Source: a virus (taxonomy: Duplodnaviria > Caudoviricetes). From it: a stretch of DNA of 64,000 bases. The stretch covers positions 2,218 through 66,217 of the IMG/VR virus record IMGVR_UViG_3300011744_000001; one strand, 5' to 3'. The notes under the pieces were generated by a model. It worked only from the letters and a program-made list of their open reading frames with translations. It was not told the origin of the DNA and ran no database searches. This document shows, in pieces, positions 6,161 to 54,890 of this stretch (position 1 is the stretch's first letter; the number at the start of each line of letters is the position of its first letter). A program made the translations under genes and the position numbers.

Positions 6161-6964
6161 ATGAACTCAATTACTTTATCAGAACATCGTTGTGCAAACA
6201 AATGTACTGATTTTAAAGCACAGGGTGAGCAGTGTAATCACTGCATGATTCAGCATATTGAAAAGCAAGAAGCTGCTTTAGGTTTAGCACCAGAGTCTGC
6301 ATACATCCAACCACAACAACACTTACTAAGTGTGGTTGGAGGCATTAACCAGGCACTAAAAATTCTTAATGATAATCCAGATGCATTTGACTGGTATTCA
6401 TTAGAAAAGAATTACTACTACGATTCTGAAGTTAGATCGAATTTAATTTCTCTTGAAAAGCTTCAAAATGCTTGTAATGAATACTTTGTCGCGGTTTTTG
6501 GTGGCATCAAAGCAATTAAATATCTTGTTGAGAATGCACCAACTGGTGCGACTCATTTTGATCGTTATTTCGAGAAAATTGATTTTCTAAAAAAAGAAAT
6601 CTTTATTTGGGTTGAAGGCGATTGGTCTAAACAAGAATTAAGAATCATGGGATTCAGTAAGGCTATTGCAGAGAGTATTGCAATCAATGATCTGAAAAAT
6701 ACTTTAGAGACATATCAACCTAAGGTTATTCCAACTTTTGCAGAAAGTAATTTTACATATGAACAAATTACACAAAGCACAGTTGACCGCATTGAGTTTT
6801 TCAACAATCAAAAATTGATTGCACAACAAGATGGAAATCTTTCAGAAGCTGATTCTTTTGATAATCAAGCTGATGGTGCATACCTATTGTGGTTTCATTT
6901 AACAAAGTCATGTCAAAGCAAATTTGATCTTGATCGCCTACAAAAATTGGTAGGTGCTCGATAA
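6161..6964 (+). CDS. Hypothetical phage protein
   Basis: 267 aa with N-terminal Cys cluster and the APTGATH phage motif. Confidence 0.6.
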   Translation: MNSITLSEHRCANKCTDFKAQGEQCNHCMIQHIEKQEAALGLAPESAYIQPQQHLLSVVGGINQALKILNDNPDAFDWYSLEKNYYYDSEVRSNLISLEKLQNACNEYFVAVFGGIKAIKYLVENAPTGATHFDRYFEKIDFLKKEIFIWVEGDWSKQELRIMGFSKAIAESIAINDLKNTLETYQPKVIPTFAESNFTYEQITQSTVDRIEFFNNQKLIAQQDGNLSEADSFDNQADGAYLLWFHLTKSCQSKFDLDRLQKLVGAR

Positions 6965-7251
6965 TGAAATCAAACAAAAATAATCGTCCACACCTCCAAT
7001 GTGTATTCAATTTCCATAAGTCGGCAATTTCTCTTTTGTTAGAAATGCAGCAAGAAGCAATTCAGGCATCTTCTCCAGACGATCAAGTTTGGCGTGAGGA
7101 CTGGAAAGCACGTTTGGCTTATGAGCATCAATTAAAAGATGACGTTTGTGAGCAAATTGAATCATCGTTATTTGCTTCGAACTTAATCAATTTTAATGGT
7201 GAAAGCGTTTTTGTTGTAGTTGCTGATGAAGCACGGGCAGGTGCTGCATGA
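6964..7251 (+). CDS. Hypothetical phage protein
   Basis: 95 aa, overlapping start and stop with neighbours. Confidence 0.55.
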   Translation: MKSNKNNRPHLQCVFNFHKSAISLLLEMQQEAIQASSPDDQVWREDWKARLAYEHQLKDDVCEQIESSLFASNLINFNGESVFVVVADEARAGAA

Positions 7252-7757
7252 AAACTAAACCAATTGATTTAAATGCTATTGAAGTGATAGCTCTTTTAAG
7301 TAATGGCAATGTTCAAATCAGAAGAAAGGTTAAGCCTAAAAGCGGTGGGGAAATCTTAGGCTGGGGTGGAAGCAATATTGCTATGGAAAAAATTCCATGT
7401 GATGACCCAGATAACAGTCACGTTAGAACAGTGGTCTGCCCATATGGTCAAGTTGGAGACCGTCTTTTTGTCCGTGAAGCATTTGCCAAACAAATTAGAA
7501 ATGTAGGTGGTACGCCTCATGAGCAATTTGTCTATAAGGCATCAAATCCCAATGCAGTTCACTTTGCTGACTGTAATGGAAAATCATATCCAGTTAAGTG
7601 GAAACCAGCACCCAAAATGGCTCGTCATGCATCACGATTAACTCTTGAGATTAAAGAAATATGCGTGGTTCTCAAGGAGACTAAACAAGCTAAGGAAAAC
7701 CCAAATCAATTTATGTGGGTGATCAAATTTGAAGTAATTCAAGGCGGTGCTGTATGA
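7248..7757 (+). CDS. Hypothetical phage protein (ASCH/PUA-like family)
   Basis: CPYGQVGDRLFVRE, WKPAPKMARHASRLTLEI and NQFMWVIKF motifs. Confidence 0.55.
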   Translation: MKTKPIDLNAIEVIALLSNGNVQIRRKVKPKSGGEILGWGGSNIAMEKIPCDDPDNSHVRTVVCPYGQVGDRLFVREAFAKQIRNVGGTPHEQFVYKASNPNAVHFADCNGKSYPVKWKPAPKMARHASRLTLEIKEICVVLKETKQAKENPNQFMWVIKFEVIQGGAV

Positions 7758-8230
7758 CTATGGCTGAAAAAAAGCTATTTGGCATGGCAGATAACAGAAC
7801 TGATCTCTGGGCAACTCCCCAAGAATTCTTCGACAAGCTTAATGCCATTTTTAACTTTAATCTTGATGTTTGCGCGCTTGAAGAAAATGCAAAGTGTGAA
7901 CGATTCTTCACGCCTGAGACAAATGGATTAAATCAAGAGTGGACAGGCACTTGCTGGATGAATCCGCCGTACGGTCGAGAAATTATTGATTGGGTTGCAA
8001 AAGCTGCACACACAGCAAAACAAGGGCATACCGTTGTTGCTCTTGTTCCAGTACGGACAGATGCTCGATGGTTTCAAGATTACTGCTTAGGTCGTGAAAT
8101 CCACTTTATTCGTGGTCGCTTGAAGTTCGGTGGTTGTAAGGACAATGCACCATTTGGATGTTGTGTTGTCGTATTTCGTCCAAGTTTGCGCGATGTCAAT
8201 TGGAATGATTCTAAAGGCGGTGCTGTATGA
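7754..8230 (+). CDS. Phage DNA N6-adenine methyltransferase (phage Dam family)
   Basis: WATPQEFFD, LDVCA and WMNPPYG motifs. Confidence 0.88.
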   Translation: MTMAEKKLFGMADNRTDLWATPQEFFDKLNAIFNFNLDVCALEENAKCERFFTPETNGLNQEWTGTCWMNPPYGREIIDWVAKAAHTAKQGHTVVALVPVRTDARWFQDYCLGREIHFIRGRLKFGGCKDNAPFGCCVVVFRPSLRDVNWNDSKGGAV

Positions 8231-10131
8231 CTACCTTTGTAAAATTATCACACTCATTTAAAACTCAATTCGATTTAAATTTTTCTGAAAAAATTATTGT
8301 TGATTTCTTTGCTGGTGGCGGTGGAGCAAGCACAGGTTTAGAAATGGGTCTAAACCGAAGCGTATTTGCAGCTGTAAATCACAATCCCAAAGCACTATCA
8401 ATGCATGAGGCTAATCATCCTCACGCAAAACATTATGTTCAGGATGTTTTTGCAGTAGATCCTGTAGAAATCTGTGAGGGGTATCCAGTCGGCTGGTTTC
8501 ATGCGAGTCCGGATTGTACTCATCACTCACAAGCTGCTGGCGGTCAACCACGGAAAAAAGAGATTCGTGATTTAGCGTGGGTTATTCCTAAATTTGCTGG
8601 CAAGGTAAAACCAGACATTATTTCAATGGAAAATGTTAAGCAGATGCTTAATTGGGGGCCATTGATTGCAAAACGTGACAAAGCCACTGGGCGCGTTGTG
8701 ACCTTAGATAAAATAATTGTTAATGGGAAAAAACAGTATCGAGTTGCAGAACATGGTGAATATGTACCACGAGATAATCAATTTTTAGTACCCGATCCAA
8801 AAAGAATAGGACAAACATGGAAACAATTTGTTCGTCATCTTGAGGGATTGGGCTATGTAGTTGAGTGGAAAAAGCTTGTTGCTGCTGACTTTGGTGCTCC
8901 AACTACTCGCGAGCGTTTATTTGTTATTGCTCGATGTGATGGTCAGCCAATTGTGTGGCCTGAACCAACGCACATAAAGAAATCGAAAGTTACTAAAGCA
9001 ACCAAGAAAAAGCAAAAGTGGCGTGCAGCTGCTGAAATCATAGATTTTAGTGACCTTGGCAAATCTATTTTTAATCGTCCAAAACCATTGGCTGATGCAA
9101 CATTAAAGCGAATTGCTCGTGGAATTAAAAAATTTGTTTTAGAAACAGATGAACCTTATTTAGTTGAGTCAACATTACCATTTATTAGCCGTGACTTTGG
9201 GACTTCAACAGGGCATCAAATCACTGAACCTTTGGCAACTACAACATCAGCTTTTGGTGGTCATAGTGCTTTGGTTAGTCCAATTATTGCACCATTCCTG
9301 ACTGAATTTGCCAATGCTTCACAACAGCGTAATTGGTCTATTGATCAACCATTAACGACAATTTGTGCTCAAGTTAAAGGTGGGCATCATGGTTTAGTTG
9401 CTCCATTGCTTATTCATGCTGGACATGGAGAAGGTACACCAGAAAATCCAAGATGGAGTGATGGGTGTGACAATATTCTTGATCCTCTAGGAACAATCAC
9501 AGCTTCTGGTGCAAGTCGTAATTTAGTTGCAGCTTACATGATGCAAGCGAATGGTGGTTTTAATGAAACAGATGGGCGACATCTTTTCGAACCATTATCA
9601 ACCATTACAAATACTGGTAGTCAGCAACAGTATGTATCGGCTGTATTCACACAAGCTTTTTATGGTGACAAATCAAATTCAGATCATCGTGCTGATTCGC
9701 TAGATAGTCCGCTGCGGACAATAACTACGGAGAATCGACACAGTATTGTTAGCGCGACTTTAAGTAAAGAAAACTATGAAGGTGCTTTACGTGTTGCAGC
9801 GTTTTTTATCAATTTCTATGGCAATGGTGATGCTCGTGATATTACCGCACCACTTGACACACTCACCACAAAAGATCGGCTGGCTCTAGTTACTGTTTGG
9901 ATCAAGAACGTACCTTGGGTCATTGTTGATATTCGTATGCGAATGCTTAAACCGCGAGAGTTGTATAAGGGGCAAGGTTTTCCAGATTCTTACATTATTG
10001 AAAATGGACACGATGGCAAGCCCTTAACAAAAACAGATCAAGTGCATATGTGCGGTAACAGTGTGTCTCCTTTACCAATGGCAGCCATAGCAAAAGTAAA
10101 TAATCCATTTCTATTAGGTGGTGCTAAATGA
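8227..10131 (+). CDS. DNA cytosine-C5 methyltransferase with long variable region
   Basis: DFFAGGGG (I), SPDC (IV), MENV (VI), TTRERLF (VIII), RMLKPREL..GQGFP (IX) and CGNSV (X) motifs. Confidence 0.92.
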   Translation: MTTFVKLSHSFKTQFDLNFSEKIIVDFFAGGGGASTGLEMGLNRSVFAAVNHNPKALSMHEANHPHAKHYVQDVFAVDPVEICEGYPVGWFHASPDCTHHSQAAGGQPRKKEIRDLAWVIPKFAGKVKPDIISMENVKQMLNWGPLIAKRDKATGRVVTLDKIIVNGKKQYRVAEHGEYVPRDNQFLVPDPKRIGQTWKQFVRHLEGLGYVVEWKKLVAADFGAPTTRERLFVIARCDGQPIVWPEPTHIKKSKVTKATKKKQKWRAAAEIIDFSDLGKSIFNRPKPLADATLKRIARGIKKFVLETDEPYLVESTLPFISRDFGTSTGHQITEPLATTTSAFGGHSALVSPIIAPFLTEFANASQQRNWSIDQPLTTICAQVKGGHHGLVAPLLIHAGHGEGTPENPRWSDGCDNILDPLGTITASGASRNLVAAYMMQANGGFNETDGRHLFEPLSTITNTGSQQQYVSAVFTQAFYGDKSNSDHRADSLDSPLRTITTENRHSIVSATLSKENYEGALRVAAFFINFYGNGDARDITAPLDTLTTKDRLALVTVWIKNVPWVIVDIRMRMLKPRELYKGQGFPDSYIIENGHDGKPLTKTDQVHMCGNSVSPLPMAAIAKVNNPFLLGGAK

Positions 10132-24203: not shown

Positions 24204-24716
24204 ATGGGCAGTTTAAACCTTGCGGCGGTTACACCAGATACGCCGTATATCAAAAAAATCAAGGCAGCATTGGAAAAAGGAACAGGGGATAAGATTCCGA
24301 TTGTTGAAGTCAAAAAAGTTCAACGGAAAGGCGGAGTCAGTACCTCACCTGTCTTTTTTCGGTTTGCTGGTGGACAGGAACTGGTTTTGTACGTCCGTGC
24401 AAGCGCCGATGTCATCAAGGCAGAATTGAACGGTAAGGAAATCGTCCTGCCAGGTGATTTCAGCGACGACTATCAGCCGACATTTGATAATGCGGTTTCT
24501 GGTGTTGCCAGCCTTGTTCGAAAGGCTCAATCAATGATTGATGAGCAAAATAAGAAAGATAAGTTTAAATTGCCACCACGAAATAATCGTGGTATCACCC
24601 AGCAGCTGAATGACAAGCGCGAAGAAGAAAGTCAACTGGATAAAGATATAGCTGGATTGACTTCACAGCGTGACCAATTGCTTGAGCAGTTGCGACATAT
24701 TCAATCCCTCCCATAA
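24204..24716 (+). CDS. Hdf/DarA-N-like virion protein
   Basis: Resembles the DarA N-terminal fold (F.F..GQ.L.L...); coiled-coil tail; preceded by the late-promoter motif. Confidence 0.55.
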   Translation: MGSLNLAAVTPDTPYIKKIKAALEKGTGDKIPIVEVKKVQRKGGVSTSPVFFRFAGGQELVLYVRASADVIKAELNGKEIVLPGDFSDDYQPTFDNAVSGVASLVRKAQSMIDEQNKKDKFKLPPRNNRGITQQLNDKREEESQLDKDIAGLTSQRDQLLEQLRHIQSLP

Positions 24717-25274: not shown

Positions 25275-25609
25275 TTGATTACCCAAAGATCATGGCAATG
25301 ATTGAGCACTGGCTTGAATCCGAAATCAACGGCTATTTCGGTTCTGACTATGGACCAGACTTCAATAGTATTTTGCTTGCGCCGTTAAGTGCTCCAGTTG
25401 CCAATAACTTCATTGAAAAAATGAAATCTGACATTCCAATCCTGAAACAGCTAAGCGCCGACCAGCTTCAATTGTGGTCACGGGATGAGGGGTTTGAAAC
25501 AAAAGTCATTTATTTGCAGGTTGGCAACCAGATTGCAATTAATTTGAACCAGGTACGGGACATGCAGTTATCACGTAACGGGGAGACATACGATGTTGAC
25601 GCAAGCTGA
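25271..25609 (+). CDS. Baseplate wedge protein (gp25-like position)
   Basis: NGYFGSDYG motif; directly before the baseplate J-like gene. Confidence 0.5.
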   Translation: MIDYPKIMAMIEHWLESEINGYFGSDYGPDFNSILLAPLSAPVANNFIEKMKSDIPILKQLSADQLQLWSRDEGFETKVIYLQVGNQIAINLNQVRDMQLSRNGETYDVDAS

Positions 25610-27035
25610 TTTTGAGGCACGTATTGTCGCAGTGCTGGACGATTACGAGATTCTTGAACGGTATAACGCACAGGACCCGATTGTGCTTAGGTTCCTACGC
25701 TCAATTGCAGCATTTCTGTCTTTATTTAGTCAGGAAGTGGATATATCCGAGATTGAGCCATTCATTAAAACCCGTGACAGGTCAATCATTGCCGATGCCA
25801 CAAACAAGGGTATTTTACCAATCGGGATGCCAACACAGCATGTACTGGAAGTGCTGAACCGATCAGCGAATAGCATTACTTTAAGTCAGGGGCGAATGAT
25901 TGAGGACAACAGTGGCAGCAGACCATGGCGCTTGCTTCAATCCGTAACGGTCAATGCTGGTGAAACGGGGGAAGTGCTGGTTGAGCAGAGCGAATACCGA
26001 GAAGTCCAGTACACCGTCCAAAGCACAGAAAACTTTCACCGTGTTGAGTTGCAGCTCAGGGATGATTTATCACTGGCAGGAATTACCGTTCGGGATAACT
26101 CAAATCAGGCATACCAGCTTAAAAAACGCTGGATGAGCGTCGAGCCCTTGGAATATGCATTTAACCTCACTACAGACAGCCTACGCCGTATTTTCATTGA
26201 GTTTGGGGATGATGAGCGTGCAGGCCGTACAGCACAGGCAAACCAGGTATTCACGTTTGGAATTCTTGAAACATACGGGGATGTCGATGTATCACGGTTG
26301 AAAGATGCATCATTACTCGATGTGCTGACTACAGATGAAACCAAGGTATCTGTCAGATTCAAGCAAGGCGGTATCGTTCGGCAGGGTGCTGATCCTTTGA
26401 ATATTTCCCAGTTGCGTGTGCTTGCCACATATCCAGCGCTCTATGATGAAAATGCCGTGTTTCTGGGGAATTTTGATTATTCGGTTCGCCAAAAGTTTAT
26501 GGCCCGTTGCCACTATATCGCGGTATGGAATGAGAACGAACAGGACCGTTACTATGGCGTGACCTACCAGGACATTAACCACTTGCACATTGCTGTGGTC
26601 GCCAAAAACAATGCAGAACAGGCAAACCTTGAAACTGAAATTATTCAATACATTGGCTTGCTGGATAGCCTGTATAAAGATCGGGTGCGTGTCCATGCTG
26701 TTGTGGAGAAGCCGTTTAATATTACCCTGAATGGGCGCTTGGCAGCTGTGCATGATCTTGACGGCGTGAAAGCCCAGATCAAGGGATTGCTGGTTGACCG
26801 CTACGGACGTACAAAGCTTAGTGCAAGCCGTTGGCTGGTGAATGGGTTTAATACCCAAGGCATTTCAACACAGCTTAGAACCAATATTGTCGCGTTTCAG
26901 GACAATATTAGTGACTTCTCCTTAAATGTGCCTGTTGTACTCAATAAACCGCACGAATGGGTCTATATCTCAGAACCAAGCATTACCTTGAACATTGAGC
27001 GCACGGCTGAAACATCGGGGGCGGCATGGATATAA
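25593..27035 (+). CDS. Baseplate J/BplA-like protein
   Basis: 480 aa; TRDRSIIADATNKGILP N-terminus; neighbourhood of a contractile-tail module. Confidence 0.6.
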   Translation: MLTQADFEARIVAVLDDYEILERYNAQDPIVLRFLRSIAAFLSLFSQEVDISEIEPFIKTRDRSIIADATNKGILPIGMPTQHVLEVLNRSANSITLSQGRMIEDNSGSRPWRLLQSVTVNAGETGEVLVEQSEYREVQYTVQSTENFHRVELQLRDDLSLAGITVRDNSNQAYQLKKRWMSVEPLEYAFNLTTDSLRRIFIEFGDDERAGRTAQANQVFTFGILETYGDVDVSRLKDASLLDVLTTDETKVSVRFKQGGIVRQGADPLNISQLRVLATYPALYDENAVFLGNFDYSVRQKFMARCHYIAVWNENEQDRYYGVTYQDINHLHIAVVAKNNAEQANLETEIIQYIGLLDSLYKDRVRVHAVVEKPFNITLNGRLAAVHDLDGVKAQIKGLLVDRYGRTKLSASRWLVNGFNTQGISTQLRTNIVAFQDNISDFSLNVPVVLNKPHEWVYISEPSITLNIERTAETSGAAWI

Positions 27036-27664
27036 ACTTTACCCGTCCGATTGACCAGCAGAGAAATAATCGTCGGAGTTCTGGGCTAGAAACGGCCATG
27101 GCAAAGGCCTTTAAACAGGTTTTTGCTGATGTGTTTCAGGAACAAATTCAGGATCTGCTGGATTACGGCGCTCCGCATATTGGCAGTCCAACTGTGGTTG
27201 AGCGCTTCTCAAAACAGGATGGTTTGGTCGTGCTACGCCGTCCTGTGACTTCTGACACCCTGATGCGGGTGATCTATGCCAACTGGTCCAGCATGGCAAG
27301 TGAGCGCGGTCTGGGCTTTCTTGAGTTCGTTTTGCGTATGCTGTGGACGGACCAATGGCAGATTAAGCGGATGTGGCACCCGATCAGCACCTATACCAGC
27401 TATCCGCAATACCTCATTGATGAGGAACGCCCTGACCATTTCCTGACAAGCCGAATCCGAATCACCATTGATGAATCGGTTGATCTTGCTGAGATTGTAG
27501 AGCTTTCACCCATTATCCGCCGTCTGGTGCCCGCAAACATTGTAGTCAAGGTCAATGCCAAGCAACTGGATGTCGATGGGGACTTACCGATTGGAGTGGG
27601 TATCGTGAGTCAATCCTTTATCGTTCAGGATTTTAGTGTTGGCATTACAGATAACGCTATTTGA
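27026..27664 (+). CDS. Baseplate protein (I-like position)
   Basis: RGLGFLEFVLRML and IRRLVPANIVV motifs typical of baseplate I-type proteins. Confidence 0.5.
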   Translation: MDINFTRPIDQQRNNRRSSGLETAMAKAFKQVFADVFQEQIQDLLDYGAPHIGSPTVVERFSKQDGLVVLRRPVTSDTLMRVIYANWSSMASERGLGFLEFVLRMLWTDQWQIKRMWHPISTYTSYPQYLIDEERPDHFLTSRIRITIDESVDLAEIVELSPIIRRLVPANIVVKVNAKQLDVDGDLPIGVGIVSQSFIVQDFSVGITDNAI

Positions 27665-27757
27665 ATTGGAACTCATTAAATCTAAATAGTTCAGGTGATG
27701 GTTTTATTTAACTGCTTTATGCAGAGAAATAATTAACCATTTACCAGGACTTTTTTC

Positions 27758-28225
27758 ATGTCACAAAACAATGATCAAGAAGAAAACCAGATTGCACTCA
27801 CAACCGATGTGGGTAGTGATGGTGATCTGCTAATCGAGCAGTTTTTGGGTTTTACCAATAATCCAGCTTTAAGTGATGAAGCTTTTGACCAGTTACTTGC
27901 GGGTCAAGCTGTAGAGGGTGTTACAGCCTATAAGCCTGCCACCTTTTACCAGATTTCAGCGAATCCTGAATCAATTGACTATACCAATCCATTCGATATT
28001 CATATCCATTTTCAGGATGGGCCAACGGTTATTGACGGTGTAAATGGGGCCACAAATGAATCACTGTTAAAAATCCTGATTCACCGTACCAAGTATCTTG
28101 ATGGCAAGTTTCCGTCCGACAAGAACAAAGAAGCCATTACTGCAATGGAAACGGCTTTAGCCGCCTTTGATGTGCGTACTGCTGAACGCCAAGCCCGTGG
28201 GGTTGAGGGCCAGCAAGTCGAGTAA
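27758..28225 (+). CDS. Tad1-like (Acb2/Tad1 hairpin) signal-sequestering anti-defence protein
   Basis: IHFQDGP...GVNGATNESLLKILIHR...FPSDKNKEAITAMETALAAFDVRTAERQARGVEG matches the Tad1 C-terminal pattern. Confidence 0.75.
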   Translation: MSQNNDQEENQIALTTDVGSDGDLLIEQFLGFTNNPALSDEAFDQLLAGQAVEGVTAYKPATFYQISANPESIDYTNPFDIHIHFQDGPTVIDGVNGATNESLLKILIHRTKYLDGKFPSDKNKEAITAMETALAAFDVRTAERQARGVEGQQVE

Positions 28226-28284
28226 TCGTTTGAACTCACCCTATGCACTGTTGCATAGGGTTCTTTTTTATGAGGAATTATAAA

Positions 28285-28479
28285 ATGCGAATGAGTAAAG
28301 TTGCCTTATTACATGCGATTGGTGCTGCTGCCCAGCTTGGATGTTCAGCTTTAGAGACTTCACCAAGACAACACGGCGCTTATAGCTTGCCTGAATTTAC
28401 ACCCTCAAAAGTGGATAAAAAGCCCAACAAAGTAAGTCAAAAGAAACGCCGTCTTAAAGCGCGTCGATTAGGTCACTAA
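28285..28479 (+). CDS. Small basic phage protein
   Basis: GAGGA RBS; K/R-rich tail KVSQKKRRLKARR. Confidence 0.6.
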   Translation: MRMSKVALLHAIGAAAQLGCSALETSPRQHGAYSLPEFTPSKVDKKPNKVSQKKRRLKARRLGH

Positions 28480-28497
28480 ACAATGGGGAGTATTCTA

Positions 28498-28617
28498 ATG
28501 AATTTACTCACGCTATTTTTCCTGATCATTGTAGGGCTAATCAATTGTGCAATCTGGCTTATTGCCATGATTGCATCGTTCTGGTTTTACGAAATTAAGG
28601 AGTTAAAGAAATGCTGA
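28498..28617 (+). CDS. 39-aa membrane microprotein (not in the ORF track)
   Basis: GGGGAG RBS; MNLLTLFFLIIVGLINCAIWLIAMIASFWFYEIKELKKC; overlaps the next start. Confidence 0.55.
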   Translation: MNLLTLFFLIIVGLINCAIWLIAMIASFWFYEIKELKKC

Positions 28618-28844
28618 CTAAAATCTATTGTTCTCAACACCAGAACTCGCAGTATTTAGATTTATCAGAGATTGACTCCATTGAAGTTTCAGACTCAGAT
28701 TTTGGCCGTGGTGGTTATACATATGGAAAAAGTGAATATTCCAGTGTAATGATAGGACTCAAGAGTGGTCATTCTTTGAATATGACAATTAAAACCTCAG
28801 ATATTGAAAAGCTTTTAGTGTTGGAACAGCCCAAAATTAAATAG
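28611..28844 (+). CDS. Hypothetical phage protein
   Basis: 77 aa with AAGGAG RBS. Confidence 0.6.
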   Translation: MLTKIYCSQHQNSQYLDLSEIDSIEVSDSDFGRGGYTYGKSEYSSVMIGLKSGHSLNMTIKTSDIEKLLVLEQPKIK

Positions 28845-28891
28845 CTGGTGAAGTGAAAAAATAGCCCTAATAGTCATATTGGGGCTTTTTT

Positions 28892-29812
28892 ATGTCTGAT
28901 TCAAAAGGTCGAAAAACGAAAAGGATTACATTCAATTTACATGAACGTGGTCGCCAGTTTCTGGGTAAAGACCGCAGCAATGTTGATATGAATGAAATGA
29001 TCAAACAGATCAACAGCCCGCAGATTCAGGAAATGGCGAAAACAGGCACATTGTACGGCTATAACGGGCATGAAATCCGTAAGCGTTACGGCATGAATCC
29101 GCCTGATTCCGTGATTGTCGATGGCAAGGTTGTTTACCTGGAACGTGCATTTAGAACCCTTGAGGTTTATGCCGATAAAGAGGGCAATGTCTCTCATGTA
29201 ACTGAGTTTCTTGATAACCCATCTGGCGAGTATGCACGTAAACAGTATCAGGCACGGGTGGGCGGCTTTAGCTCAGCACAGAACTATAAGCGTGCAGGTT
29301 TGGGGCTTATTCCTGTTGGCTTTTATGGCTTTGATTACGTTACACAGCCAAATTACACAACCAATGTGGGGGATGGTCAGCTATTTGATGGCTTGGCTAT
29401 TCCTGTTGAGCAGGACGGATTGGTTGCCTGTTTTGACAATGCAACTGACATTACCCAGCTATCCGCATCTGAAGCCATGATTGCCCATTTACTTGAGCAA
29501 CAAATTATACGTGACTATGACAATATTCACACTCAAACAGAGTTGCTGAATATGCACGGTCAGGCACTTGACCAGATTGATGTTTTGTCCACTCAGGTAG
29601 CACGTAAAGAGAGACGTGAAGCACTTCAAGCGCAGCGCCAGCATGATCTTTATTCGGGAATGGTTGGGGAGGTGCGCTCGTTTGACTCGGTATGTGAAGA
29701 AGCGGATGCATTGCTTAGTGAAAGTGATCTGGCGCGTATGCGAATCAACGGCGAAACACCAAAAGACAAGAAGCCAAAACCACGTATTTTTAAAAGCATG
29801 TTTGGATTCTAA
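28892..29812 (+). CDS. Prohead protease (T4 gp21/P1 Pro-like)
   Basis: YGYNGH, VGGFSSA and GFDYVTQPN resemble the herpes-type protease His/Ser motifs. Confidence 0.65.
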   Translation: MSDSKGRKTKRITFNLHERGRQFLGKDRSNVDMNEMIKQINSPQIQEMAKTGTLYGYNGHEIRKRYGMNPPDSVIVDGKVVYLERAFRTLEVYADKEGNVSHVTEFLDNPSGEYARKQYQARVGGFSSAQNYKRAGLGLIPVGFYGFDYVTQPNYTTNVGDGQLFDGLAIPVEQDGLVACFDNATDITQLSASEAMIAHLLEQQIIRDYDNIHTQTELLNMHGQALDQIDVLSTQVARKERREALQAQRQHDLYSGMVGEVRSFDSVCEEADALLSESDLARMRINGETPKDKKPKPRIFKSMFGF

Positions 29813-29817
29813 GGGGA

Positions 29818-30633
29818 ATGACAATGACATTACCCAAGGATTCACTGAAATGTATTCAAAATGCCTGGTACAAACTGCTCGTTGATTTTCGTGCATGGTA
29901 TATGCCCGAAACCATTCAGACGGATGAATGGAAAAAACGGGATGTTCGAACAGCGATTAAGTCATGTCCATCACGGATGATGGATGATTCAGAAGCTATG
30001 CTTTCTGAATACCGAAAAAGCCAAAATGCTGATGTGACTGGCGGTGCAACGGCGTTTATGCCGATCATGCTGACAGCCACGGCGCTTGTGGACCAGCCAC
30101 CCGACACCATGCAGTTAATTCCGATGCCGTATTTCGTGCCTGTGGTAATTGAAGATGAACAGGTCCAGATACGTTTAATTGCAAAGACAGTCCGCGCTCA
30201 AATCGCGTTTTACGCAACCAATGCGCATGATGCACGTTCAGTATGTGACCAGTTCTGTGCATATGTAATGGATGAAAGTAAGCGCCGTTTTGCTGTGCCG
30301 TTTGACATGGGCAACAACCACATTCAAAACAGCACATTCACAATTGTTGAGAACCAGTTGTTTCCAGCACCTGTACCAAGCGAAGCCATCAACCTATCCA
30401 TATTTACCATTGATGTGCAGTTAATTGGTTATGCACCTCAAATCATCGGCCTTGGTGGTCAACATGATACAACCACAGGCAATGGCTATAACCCTTATGA
30501 CGGTTCAGCAATAGACAAGCCACTAAATGATCTTGTTGTCGTTCAAGCGGATCAGTTCTCTGAAGATGGTCATACCCGCGTGCTTGCTGACCGTGACACA
30601 GGTGAAATCACAGTGGAGCAGATTGATGACTGA
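29818..30633 (+). CDS. Virion morphogenesis protein (tail-completion-like)
   Basis: 271 aa in the late module; function inferred from context only. Confidence 0.45.
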   Translation: MTMTLPKDSLKCIQNAWYKLLVDFRAWYMPETIQTDEWKKRDVRTAIKSCPSRMMDDSEAMLSEYRKSQNADVTGGATAFMPIMLTATALVDQPPDTMQLIPMPYFVPVVIEDEQVQIRLIAKTVRAQIAFYATNAHDARSVCDQFCAYVMDESKRRFAVPFDMGNNHIQNSTFTIVENQLFPAPVPSEAINLSIFTIDVQLIGYAPQIIGLGGQHDTTTGNGYNPYDGSAIDKPLNDLVVVQADQFSEDGHTRVLADRDTGEITVEQIDD

Positions 30634-47827: not shown

Positions 47828-47903
47828 TTGGAACAGCCCATCTCCACACAAAGCCTGAAATGTAAAAATTGCCTCAATCACAATAATATTGGGGCATTTT
47901 TCA

Positions 47904-50147
47904 ATGCGTAATATCGACATTTTTCATTCATTGCATGAACCGCACACCAGCCGTGTTGTGGAGGGCTTTGATTCAGTTAATAGTGGTTCATGCTCAATCG
48001 GGATCATCAAGGGGCAATATCGTCAGCTCAATGCGATTGTGACTGAAACCGCAACCGATGATGACCAGTGGCGTATTGTGAATTTGAAAGGTTCCCGTAA
48101 AAAATTCAATTTAGATGGCCCTGTGACTGACATCCCAGCCTTTGATTCTGTGGCTGTGCTCGGTGCTGTGGATGATGATCAGGCCAGTGCCTTGGCTCAA
48201 CTACAATTCGGGCGTATGTTTGATGCCAGTGAAGATGATGTAATTGAAACCAACCTAAATGGCCTTTTACGCCACTTGGCAACCCCACATTTTCACAAGC
48301 ACAGCCAGTTAATTCGTCGTCATCATTTAACAGCATTGCAAGACGTTCCTTGCGCCGTTGTACCAGGTTGGGATGGGATTGAACTCACCACACATGAGGG
48401 CAAAACCGCAAATCTACTGTTGGATATGCAGCGCCATGATGACCAATCAGGATTGTTGTCAAGTTTTGATGGACTGGCTCAATTGCTGGAATCCATTGGT
48501 GCCGAATATGCAGATTTTGATTCAATCATTGTTGAGTATCAGTATCTCGACAAACTGATGAATATGCTGCATAAAGCAATGCAGACTGCATCAAAGGGTG
48601 GTGTTAAGGTTTTAAAGGTAGACCAGAGCGACAAGCCTTTCCGCCATAAAAAGGTATTAAACGTTGCCGTTTCCTATGACTTTGAAGATGGGCAAACCAT
48701 AACAATCCTGTTTCATCATCCTGATCGGGATGCCAAACGTATTGCACCACAAGATACTTTGTTGTCTTGGAAAATCCTGATGAATAACCGAGATGTAACG
48801 GGTGTGATTCAGCCGAATCAGGGAGAGGGTATTGCCTTGCCCGTGTTGGCAGGTCGTGTCGTTAAACTGATTAACCAAAACAGTGCCCGATTCAAGCGAA
48901 CACAAGTCAAGAAAGCTGCCAGTGCTCAAGCTTTGGCAGATGCCGAACAACGTATCGCCGAAAAACAGAATCAAAAATCTGCATTGGAGGCAGAAATTCA
49001 GGGGTTATTAGCCCAGATTGATGAATCAGCTAAATCGCCGACACGGGCAGAGCTAGAACAGGTTCAGCAAATTACCGATGAGATGAATGCTTTTGGCGCT
49101 GACAAAGTTGGTTATCAAGGCATTGTCGCATCGATTGAGGATGGGGAAAAAGTAAAAGATATGCCTGATGGTTCCTGGGTGATTAAACATTCAGATCATG
49201 GATATACTTTTTTCTACCAATTACCTGATGGTAATTATGGCGCATCCGAGACATTGCCAACCTTGGAGCAGGCTTATCAAAATATGCTTGAAAGCCGAGA
49301 AGCAAATTTAAAATATCCTGATGACAGCAATGCATTGACAAGTTATAGGGCTTATAAGGATGGGGTCAACACGCCCGAAGCAAGCCCGAATAACGCTAAA
49401 CTCGTGACAAAAACAGAAGCAAGAAATATCTATGATGCACTCAGTATTCGTCATAGTTGGCTCACTGGTGGCACCACTGAAGAATTCTTTAGACAGAACT
49501 ATCCCGAAAGTATTAATGAAGCCTTGACAGATGCTAAGGCATTGCTGGAACGGCCTTTCGGAAAAGTTGCAACCGCAGCAGGCCTGAAACAGTCAATTGA
49601 AAGAATGGTTCAATCCGTTGAAAACACGATTGAACGCTGGAAAGCTGGAAAAACAGAAGATGCACCAAAAACCAAGACTTATCCACCTGTTGAGGACTTG
49701 GGAAATGGTTTTTATCGGGCATTTAAAAACGATAAAAGGGATGATGAATGGATCGCACATATTAACCCAAATGGAGAATGGGAAGTATCTGCCAATAACG
49801 CCCAGTCACGGGCATGGAACCGTGGGTATGGTGCGCCACGTTTCTTTAAAACAATTGAGGAAATGATGGTGAAGTATCCAGCTTTTAGATCGTTGCCTGC
49901 TTTGCTGGAGGCAAAAGTACCAGATGGAAATGAACCTGATGAGACTGGGAATGAGGCATCTACAGATGATGCAGATTACCTGAATAAAGTGATTAAAGGG
50001 GAAGTGGATTTCTCTAATTCAAGTGAAGTTGAGGCCCAGCTTGAAGCAATTGGCGGACGATTAGCCCCTGAGATTAATGATCTATTTGAACAAGCTGTAA
50101 CGGCATATTCTGTATATCAAGTCGATCAGGCTAAATTAATTAACTAA
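47904..50147 (+). CDS. darA: DarA-like internal virion anti-restriction protein
   Basis: DarA-N region (FEDGQTITILFHHPD...NNRDVT...QNSARFKR), coiled coil, and DarA-C-like end (DYLNKVIKGEVDF...LFEQAV). Confidence 0.7.
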   Translation: MRNIDIFHSLHEPHTSRVVEGFDSVNSGSCSIGIIKGQYRQLNAIVTETATDDDQWRIVNLKGSRKKFNLDGPVTDIPAFDSVAVLGAVDDDQASALAQLQFGRMFDASEDDVIETNLNGLLRHLATPHFHKHSQLIRRHHLTALQDVPCAVVPGWDGIELTTHEGKTANLLLDMQRHDDQSGLLSSFDGLAQLLESIGAEYADFDSIIVEYQYLDKLMNMLHKAMQTASKGGVKVLKVDQSDKPFRHKKVLNVAVSYDFEDGQTITILFHHPDRDAKRIAPQDTLLSWKILMNNRDVTGVIQPNQGEGIALPVLAGRVVKLINQNSARFKRTQVKKAASAQALADAEQRIAEKQNQKSALEAEIQGLLAQIDESAKSPTRAELEQVQQITDEMNAFGADKVGYQGIVASIEDGEKVKDMPDGSWVIKHSDHGYTFFYQLPDGNYGASETLPTLEQAYQNMLESREANLKYPDDSNALTSYRAYKDGVNTPEASPNNAKLVTKTEARNIYDALSIRHSWLTGGTTEEFFRQNYPESINEALTDAKALLERPFGKVATAAGLKQSIERMVQSVENTIERWKAGKTEDAPKTKTYPPVEDLGNGFYRAFKNDKRDDEWIAHINPNGEWEVSANNAQSRAWNRGYGAPRFFKTIEEMMVKYPAFRSLPALLEAKVPDGNEPDETGNEASTDDADYLNKVIKGEVDFSNSSEVEAQLEAIGGRLAPEINDLFEQAVTAYSVYQVDQAKLIN

Positions 50148-54702: not shown

Positions 54703-54890
54703 TTTGGCAGTTTATTTATTTATACGTGATAATCATGGTGGTTTGATCGATGTCCAGAATCAGCGTGGAGTTGGATATTTAAATGGTCGGTTGTGCCAAT
54801 TCGAGTTAATCAAATAATGAATTGGAACATGCCCTAAGTTTGATTGCACCAAAAACGCAAAATAGCCTTATTCAGATAGGGCTTTTTTTT

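Follow-up and report, generated by a model that had tools for sequence, protein, structure and literature searches.

The locus considered here lies in a 64 kb stretch of DNA (the window, meaning the whole of the sequence analysed) out of the 66 kb IMG/VR virus record IMGVR_UViG_3300011744_000001, which has a completeness rating of 97 %. It raises the question of what is encoded by the gene at positions 27758-28225 and by the three small open reading frames (ORFs) that follow it, designated ORF2, ORF3 and ORF4. A first-pass annotation had proposed that the gene specifies a relative of Tad1, and that the four genes constitute an anti-defence operon in which the small ORFs are candidates for new inhibitors. 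We favour a reading, to which we assign a probability of about 0.78, in which the product of the gene is an immune-signal sponge of the Tad1 family, made by a temperate Acinetobacter myophage, and its neighbours are dispensable cargo. Among isolated phages the closest is vB_AbaM_ABMM1 (OQ471969; PMC10345192), a temperate Acinetobacter myophage referred to below as ABMM1, whose local gene order is identical; a megablast search of positions 27000-29900 against phage records gave no match.

A Tad1-family protein and its fold

The gene, called tad1 below, is as follows.

27758-28225, + strand: Tad1-family gene, 155 amino acids (aa), isoelectric point (pI) 4.3; identified by phrog_2428 (1e-37), phmmer, profile and fold

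The 155 aa protein is a genuine member of the Tad1 family. Its open frame spans only 162 codons, so that 27758 is the sole usable start; position 27666, at which the first-pass annotation began its feature, marks the start of the 93 nucleotide (nt) intergenic gap that separates the gene from the stop of its upstream neighbour at 27664. Every motif quoted in that annotation for the C-terminal part is found in the protein (FQDGP at residues 85-89, GVNG at 94-97, NE.LL at 100-104, R110, N123..AI, and R140..ER144..RGVEG, with RGVEG at 147-151), and the match to solved Tad1 proteins is far above chance. A phmmer search with the protein matched CmTad1 (8KBB) at E 1.1e-8, phiKZ gp184 (8Y6V) at 5e-7 and CbTad1 at 0.028, and an exhaustive search yielded 1876 representatives at E≤0.001, most of them 100-130 aa long and having the C-terminal ~72 residues in common. 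A profile built from 122 relatives of the window protein (alignment A1) matched CmTad1 at 6.5e-24, CbTad1 at ~1e-18 and phiKZ gp184 at 3.4e-17, and its positions 19-125 of 126 align to residues 22-131 of the 132-residue CmTad1 chain. Residue Y64 is almost invariant among the family members in this alignment.

The predicted structure leads to the same assignment. An AlphaFold2 model based on alignment A1 has a mean predicted local distance difference test score (pLDDT) of 91.2 and a predicted template modelling score of 0.80, with disorder limited to residues 1-6. Strands at residues 12-21, 24-33, 55-57, 63-68 and 80-85, together with one short helix (40-47) and two long ones (100-117 and 121-146), give the N-terminal antiparallel beta-sheet and the C-terminal pair of long helices that characterize the Tad1 wedge. 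Among the matches listed by Foldseek for the PDB at E≤0.001 there were Tad1 chains exclusively (probability 1.0, target-normalised TM 0.66-0.73), and VIA-align superposed model residues 11-155 on the whole chains of CmTad1 (Z 10.9, root-mean-square deviation 2.5 Å, 116 residues) and CbTad1 (Z 10.5, 2.9 Å, 116 of 125 residues); the best unrelated match reached Z 6.8 and involved the helical hairpin only. Since the superposition spans whole Tad1 chains, what had been described as an additional acidic N-terminus of ~75 aa is the beta-sheet half of the fold (residues ~11-85), enlarged by about 30 residues. The segment is indeed acidic, with 13 Asp or Glu against a single Lys or Arg in residues 1-75, and it is its status as an add-on that has to be given up. 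The Tad1 assignment itself is borne out by sequence profile, by fold and by the pocket residues described below.

CmTad1, from a Clostridioides mangenotii prophage (8KBB, 8KBC, 8KBD), is the best match of the window protein in both sequence and fold, with the beta-sheet and helical-hairpin architecture and the motifs FQ.GP, G.NG, NE.L, R, N..AIT and R...R..G.EG in common; the window protein differs in having about 30 more residues in its N-terminal half, including the helix at 40-47. CbTad1, from a Clostridium botulinum prophage (7UAV, 7UAW, 8SMD, 8KBE-8KBH), shares the fold, and equivalents of its F82, N92, R109 and R113 pocket are present, but pairwise similarity is weak, R90 is replaced by Asp and the loop residue R57 by Thr, while T97 is kept as T128. 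The sponge Acb2, which acts against the cyclic-oligonucleotide-based antiphage signalling system (CBASS), has the name of the helical-hairpin family PF24729 in common with Tad1, and some relatives of the window protein match this family, whereas the N-terminal beta-sheet is a Tad1 feature. No Acb2 chain appeared in the phmmer or A1-profile results (E≤1-10) or among the Foldseek and VIA matches listed, which remains compatible with a distant kinship via the shared hairpin domain.

Little of this is new in kind, in that Tad1 is well studied and the Acinetobacter clade was catalogued in 2022 by Leavitt et al. (10.1101/2022.05.03.490397), whose 799 Tad1 homologues include, in Table S3, a 152 aa A. 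baumannii protein of the ABMM1 type. ABMM1 gp82, the 152 aa A. baumannii form, is a clade mate of the window protein (53 % identity over residues 19-155) and occupies the matching genomic position, after genes for a baseplate J-like protein and a phrog_4620 protein and before one for a phrog_4727 protein, with a TTGGAAC element upstream; it differs in that ORF4 alone lies 3' of tad1, and ORF2, ORF3 and the hairpin that follows tad1 are missing. The present analysis supplies an annotation for a gene labelled 'hypothetical' in ABMM1 and in Acinetobacter genomes, and suggests that an anti-Thoeris function is carried by temperate Acinetobacter phages, some of which have been considered for therapy.

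The Tad1 profile has matches in 13 of 201 sampled Acinetobacter genomes. Twelve related loci are phage or prophage structural regions in which tad1 occupies the identical position within the same gene order, and one further Acinetobacter copy (L034) lies in a different context. ThsB_TIR was found in one of five lysogen genomes and SMODS in two of the five. Another Acinetobacter genome (L045; G159:C15) contains a decayed tad1 with four in-frame stops.

Ligand pockets and oligomer contacts

Residue roles were taken from published work on Tad1 (10.1101/2023.11.15.567273) and mapped through the HMMER alignment, with an offset of +10 to the 8KBB numbering that is consistent for all eleven named residues; statements about helix faces are based on i, i+3, i+4, i+7 periodicity. 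The equivalences are these.

Pocket for glycocyclic ADP-ribose (gcADPR) and 2',3'-cyclic GMP-AMP (2',3'-cGAMP), CbTad1 F82, N92, R109, R113: Y113, N123, R140, R144 in the window protein
Cyclic-trinucleotide phosphate contacts, CmTad1 R88, T95 (CbTad1 R90, T97): D121, T128
Cyclic-trinucleotide base contacts, CmTad1 C87, A91, M92: S120, K124, E125
Hexamer contacts, CmTad1 K96, Q98, E99, M102, W103, K106: A, E, T, A, A, V

Judged from the alignment, the pocket for gcADPR and cyclic dinucleotides is kept in the window protein, the positions of N123, R140 and R144 being 99-100 % conserved among the 122 relatives. We infer its ligand and its oligomeric state by analogy with CbTad1 and CmTad1: the protomers would interlock head to tail via the two long helices, and the pocket formed by Y113, N123, R140 and R144 would bind gcADPR, the signal of Thoeris, and perhaps certain cyclic dinucleotides as well. 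The signal would then be held undegraded, such that the host effector stays off. Ten diverse homologues studied by Leavitt et al. (10.1101/2022.05.03.490397), including one from A. baumannii, all blocked type I Thoeris.

Several observations weigh against a sponge of this kind. The position of Y113 (CbTad1 F82) is variable in the clade, where it is occupied by Y, I, L or T. The Arg of the trinucleotide pocket (CmTad1 R88, CbTad1 R90) has become D121, which shares a helix face with K124 and E125, and the hexamer contacts Q98, E99, M102, W103 and K106 are replaced by E, T, A, A and V. The A. baumannii homologue verified by Leavitt et al. is one of at least two A. baumannii types, and could be any of them. 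Since tad1 stands amid late structural genes, its expression may be late. Finally, neither the window protein nor its 97 % relative matches Pfam PF24729 (Acb2_Tad1_hairpin) even at E 10. By these scores the window protein appears too divergent for this family, whose gathering threshold of 27 bits is passed by distant relatives of 110-112 aa (P0030 and P0026, at 28.3-29.4 bits), P0029 scoring 24.1 bits; precomputed PF24729.3 marks are present on P0001, P0003, P0015 and P0017.

Binding of cyclic trinucleotides is a secondary Tad1 function described in 2023 and is not family-defining. Given an Asp or Glu at the trinucleotide Arg and small residues at the hexamer contacts, weak or no binding of cyclic tri-AMP (cA3) or cyclic AMP-AMP-GMP (cAAG) is expected, and perhaps a different oligomer. 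Within the clade, D or E occupies the R88 position in 15 of 17 Acinetobacter members; among the 105 other close relatives Arg is present there in only 10, and the Trp of W103 in 14. T128 is kept in the window protein and is Ala in half of the clade. The beta4-alpha1 loop has the length found in CmTad1, and the protein retains the C-terminal tail. From these residues, the protein probably binds trinucleotides weakly or no longer at all, and its oligomer perhaps differs from the CmTad1 hexamer, although K124, one helical turn from D121, might compensate for the lost Arg. As a naturally occurring Tad1 with its trinucleotide site and hexamer contacts replaced, the protein could help to separate the two binding functions.

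The variability at the CbTad1 F82 equivalent, together with the altered trinucleotide site and the ~30 extra residues of the N-terminal sheet with their helix at 40-47, also bears on whether the Tad1 fold is retained here for a different ligand, such as histidine-ADP-ribose, N7-cyclic ADP-ribose, a cyclic mononucleotide, or cyclic dinucleotides only, in place of gcADPR. Sponge families are functionally diverse (10.1101/2025.08.24.671296), which lends such a shift some plausibility. We nevertheless consider it quite unlikely, given that N123, R140 and R144 are invariant, that the loops closing the pocket are present, and that all ten homologues of Leavitt et al., the A. baumannii one among them, were active against type I Thoeris.

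Probable transcription signals and the late-gene setting

The signals around tad1 and the genes that flank it are listed here, all on the + strand.

27666-27707, +: element upstream of tad1, TTGGAAC, 27 nt, TGGTTTTAT
28238-28271, +: terminator-like hairpin (28238-28261; 10 bp stem, 4 nt loop) and T-run directly 3' of the tad1 stop
28821-28893, +: next motif copy, TTGGAACA-N30-AAAATAG, with a hairpin and T-run (28863-28886), up to the phrog_4727 start codon at 28892
from 23599, +: Ant-like gene, in the run of late genes upstream of tad1
24204-24716, +: Hdf-like antirestriction gene (PHROG match, 2e-35)
between the Hdf-like and baseplate J-like genes, +: small membrane ORF, then a phrog_4683 protein
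25593-27035, +: baseplate J-like gene (PHROG)
27026-27664, +: phrog_4620 protein, conserved upstream flank of tad1 (PHROG and related loci)
28892-29812, +: phrog_4727 protein, 306 aa, conserved downstream flank (PHROG and related loci)
3' of the phrog_4727 gene, +: phrog_4333, then phrog_4179 (PHROG)
from 31355, +: large terminase, followed by tail-fibre, sheath and further tail genes

TTGGAAC forms the first half of a bipartite element, TTGGAACA-N29/30-AAAATAG, that recurs between genes, with nine full copies on the + strand of the window and none on the - strand; the copy at tad1 has a different second box. The 13 TTGGAAC sites (24133, 24842, 27666, 28821, 31284, 33389, 37498, 40362, 42884, 47828, 50458, 54822 and 57983, all +) lie 51-92 nt upstream of a late-gene start codon or, at 54822, at an ORF start, and the element is often accompanied by an A-run, a hairpin and a T-run just 5' of the ATG. 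In ten loci related to that of tad1 (alignment A3) TGGAAC and TG.TTT.AT are invariant, and a pattern search gave one match against 0.08 expected. The TTGGAAC copies ahead of tad1 and of the phrog_4727 gene are retained in the related Acinetobacter prophages compared. A scan for sigma-70 promoters was negative in the vicinity of tad1 and ORF2, and Rfam had no match in 27000-29500.

The bipartite element probably serves as a late promoter or an activator site specific to the phage. If it marks transcription starts, then tad1 and ORF2-4 would be transcribed as one unit, attenuated internally by the hairpin, and the following unit would start inside the 3' end of ORF4. The hairpin after tad1 is kept with compensatory changes in three related loci (L005, L007 and L009) and is missing in L010, L011, L012 and ABMM1, where ORF2 or ORF4 abuts tad1.

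This setting raises the possibility that the product of tad1 belongs mainly to the virion, as a packaged or structural protein, and that its activity as a sponge is secondary or is delivered with the DNA. Its counterpart would be phiKZ gp184 (8Y6V chain I), the C-terminal ~100 residues of which are a Tad1 domain and which is found by both the phmmer and profile searches; gp184 belongs to the capsid vertex complex at the inner capsid surface (PMC11297242). Consistent with such a role, tad1 lies between baseplate and other late genes and has their TTGGAAC element upstream, and the Hdf-like gene and a PHROG match for release upon infection suggest that packaged cargo exists in the window phage. 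However, gp184 is a protein of 230 aa that has an additional N-terminal part and undergoes head-protease processing (PMC11297242), and the window protein consists of the Tad1 fold without any further domain. What is resolved of gp184 is, moreover, described as mainly beta-strand, large portions being unresolved (PMC11297242), so that its Tad1-like domain need not be structural. Packaging of the window protein is conceivable by this analogy, yet that it is primarily a virion protein appears to us very unlikely, and a sponge remains the reading that we prefer.

Further features of this region may be recorded. The PHROG match just mentioned ('released from the phage upon host infection', 2e-23) is to 47889-50147. 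The homologue of the large terminase in an A. venetianus prophage (L003) bears a Hom_end_hint domain, the terminase being described as intein-bearing. The phrog_4620 protein has 212 aa in the window and in most relatives and 377-379 aa in two IMG/VR relatives (L005:4777-5910 and L006:4771-5910); the C-terminal half absent from the short form may be exchangeable, as a distal or receptor-binding part of the protein.

The small ORFs and the cargo slot

The basic, the 39 aa membrane and the 77 aa ORFs that the first-pass annotation noticed behind tad1 are real.

28285-28479, +: ORF2, 64 aa, pI 11.1; PHROG 23724 and 32548
28498-28617, +: ORF3, 39 aa, grand average of hydropathy 1.46, one long hydrophobic stretch, GGAG 8 nt upstream
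28611-28844, +: ORF4, 77 aa; PHROG 5518 at 1e-10

The gap between ORF2 and ORF3 is 3-18 nt, ORF4 begins within the last 7 nt of ORF3 (ATGCTGA), and each of the three has homologues at the corresponding place in relatives. The 12 related loci share a fixed order (J-like, phrog_4620, tad1, slot, phrog_4727, phrog_4333, TerL) with a slot that varies. Its contents are as follows.

Window and L009: ORF2-ORF3-ORF4
L007: ORF2, an 86 aa ORF3-like gene, a 97 aa gene, ORF4
L010 and L011: ORF2-ORF4
ABMM1, L012, L028 and L029: ORF4 only
L005: ORF2 and an FRG-domain gene (6753-7703, -)
A. venetianus prophage (L003, L004, L008): HATPase_c, DUF4325 (STAS-like) and a 201 aa protein (L008:7617-9571)
L006: a 435 aa secreted protein (6615-7922)
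L013: a 523 aa protein with a Jacalin-like domain (7301-8872, -)

The foreign cargo has a G+C content of 30-34 %, and the slot of the window 38 %, compared with 43-46 % in the surrounding 2 kb windows of the window phage. We read ORF2-4 as real accessory genes that occupy a slot for cargo and are dispensable. The slot genes of the sister prophages are possible prophage defence or exclusion cargo. Slot and conserved regulatory motif together could guide searches for new phage accessory genes.

Some arguments favour the proposal that ORF2-4 are co-expressed with tad1 and act as new inhibitors of defence. The four genes are bracketed by two successive copies of the motif, with ORF2-4 tightly packed or overlapping; ORF4 is beside or near tad1 in seven of eight strong genus matches; and ORF2 and ORF4 diverge faster than their flanks, with 36-59 % identity to their L009 counterparts against 76-86 % for the flanking genes. 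On position alone, an anti-defence role for them is possible. The argument is nonetheless one of guilt by association. Not only is the content of the slot variable and ORF2 present in five other prophage contexts without tad1, but in this lineage a terminator-like hairpin separates tad1 from ORF2, and neither library nor fold searches tie the three to defence or counter-defence: PADLOC, Pfam and the named PHROGs gave no match for any of them. PADLOC likewise had no match for tad1 or the cargo genes of sister loci, save a DrmA at chance level, and scanning the four proteins, along with those of adjacent genes, directly against Pfam returned nothing meaningful. The FRG, HATPase_c with DUF4325, Jacalin-domain and secreted proteins of sister slots are typical of prophage cargo and not of counter-defence; ORF2 and ORF3 are membrane or secreted-type peptides that would equally fit superinfection exclusion or envelope functions; and ABMM1 forms plaques with ORF4 only. 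We therefore regard new inhibitors at these positions as unlikely, and dispensable cargo as the better description.

A more elaborate construction would make this Acinetobacter clade a distinct Tad1 sub-type, a dimer or differently built oligomer that has lost the trinucleotide site, served by a late-type promoter element specific to the phage and expressed along with the trio, itself coupled in translation (secreted basic peptide, 39 aa membrane protein and small PH-like protein), at least one member of which would be a new envelope-acting counter-defence or exclusion factor. Taken as a whole it seems to us rather improbable.

As to the individual genes, the N-terminus of ORF2 is a hydrophobic segment resembling a signal peptide or an anchor, and its basic tail, KPNKVSQKKRRL.ARRLG, is strongly conserved. 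The PHROG 23724 alignment begins exactly at its Met at 28285, and a 78 aa version from 28243, which overlaps the hairpin, is unlikely. A homologue in L005 lies at the matching place with 49 % identity, and homologues occur in 8 of the 201 Acinetobacter genomes, five of the loci being without tad1. The tad1-free relatives (L019, L021, L022 and L023 among them; SQKKRRL.ARRLG tail) are always followed by a conserved 56-58 aa protein (MTDKVQAKKDL...), and those of the four named loci lie near nin-region-like genes and genes for a VSR-like endonuclease. ORF2, which has another partner in those prophages, is therefore a mobile small gene. A lipoprotein or o-spanin was considered for ORF2 and rejected, its Cys being outside a canonical lipobox and missing in the L005 and L009 homologues; an essential lysis function of ORF2 and ORF3 was also rejected, both being missing in the plaque-forming ABMM1 and in several prophages.

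ORF3 has an alternative start at 28483, which would give 44 aa, and its homologues are those of L009 and, in the longer form, L007. Homologues of ORF4 (P0180-P0190) were identified, and it has 38 % identity to ABMM1 gp83. Searches of phage records by tblastn with ORF2 and ORF4 had no match at E≤0.01, and in the ESM Atlas the two matched unnamed viral or bacterial clusters only. In the model of ORF4 (pLDDT 73) five beta-strands are accompanied by a C-terminal helix; Foldseek found nothing for it at E≤0.001, and the best match in a wide VIA search, to PH-like domains, had a Z of 6.2, below the noise level of 7-8, such that any PH-like or Sso7d-like resemblance is weak. In one Acinetobacter genome (L031; G171:C3) ORF4 carries one in-frame stop beside an intact tad1.

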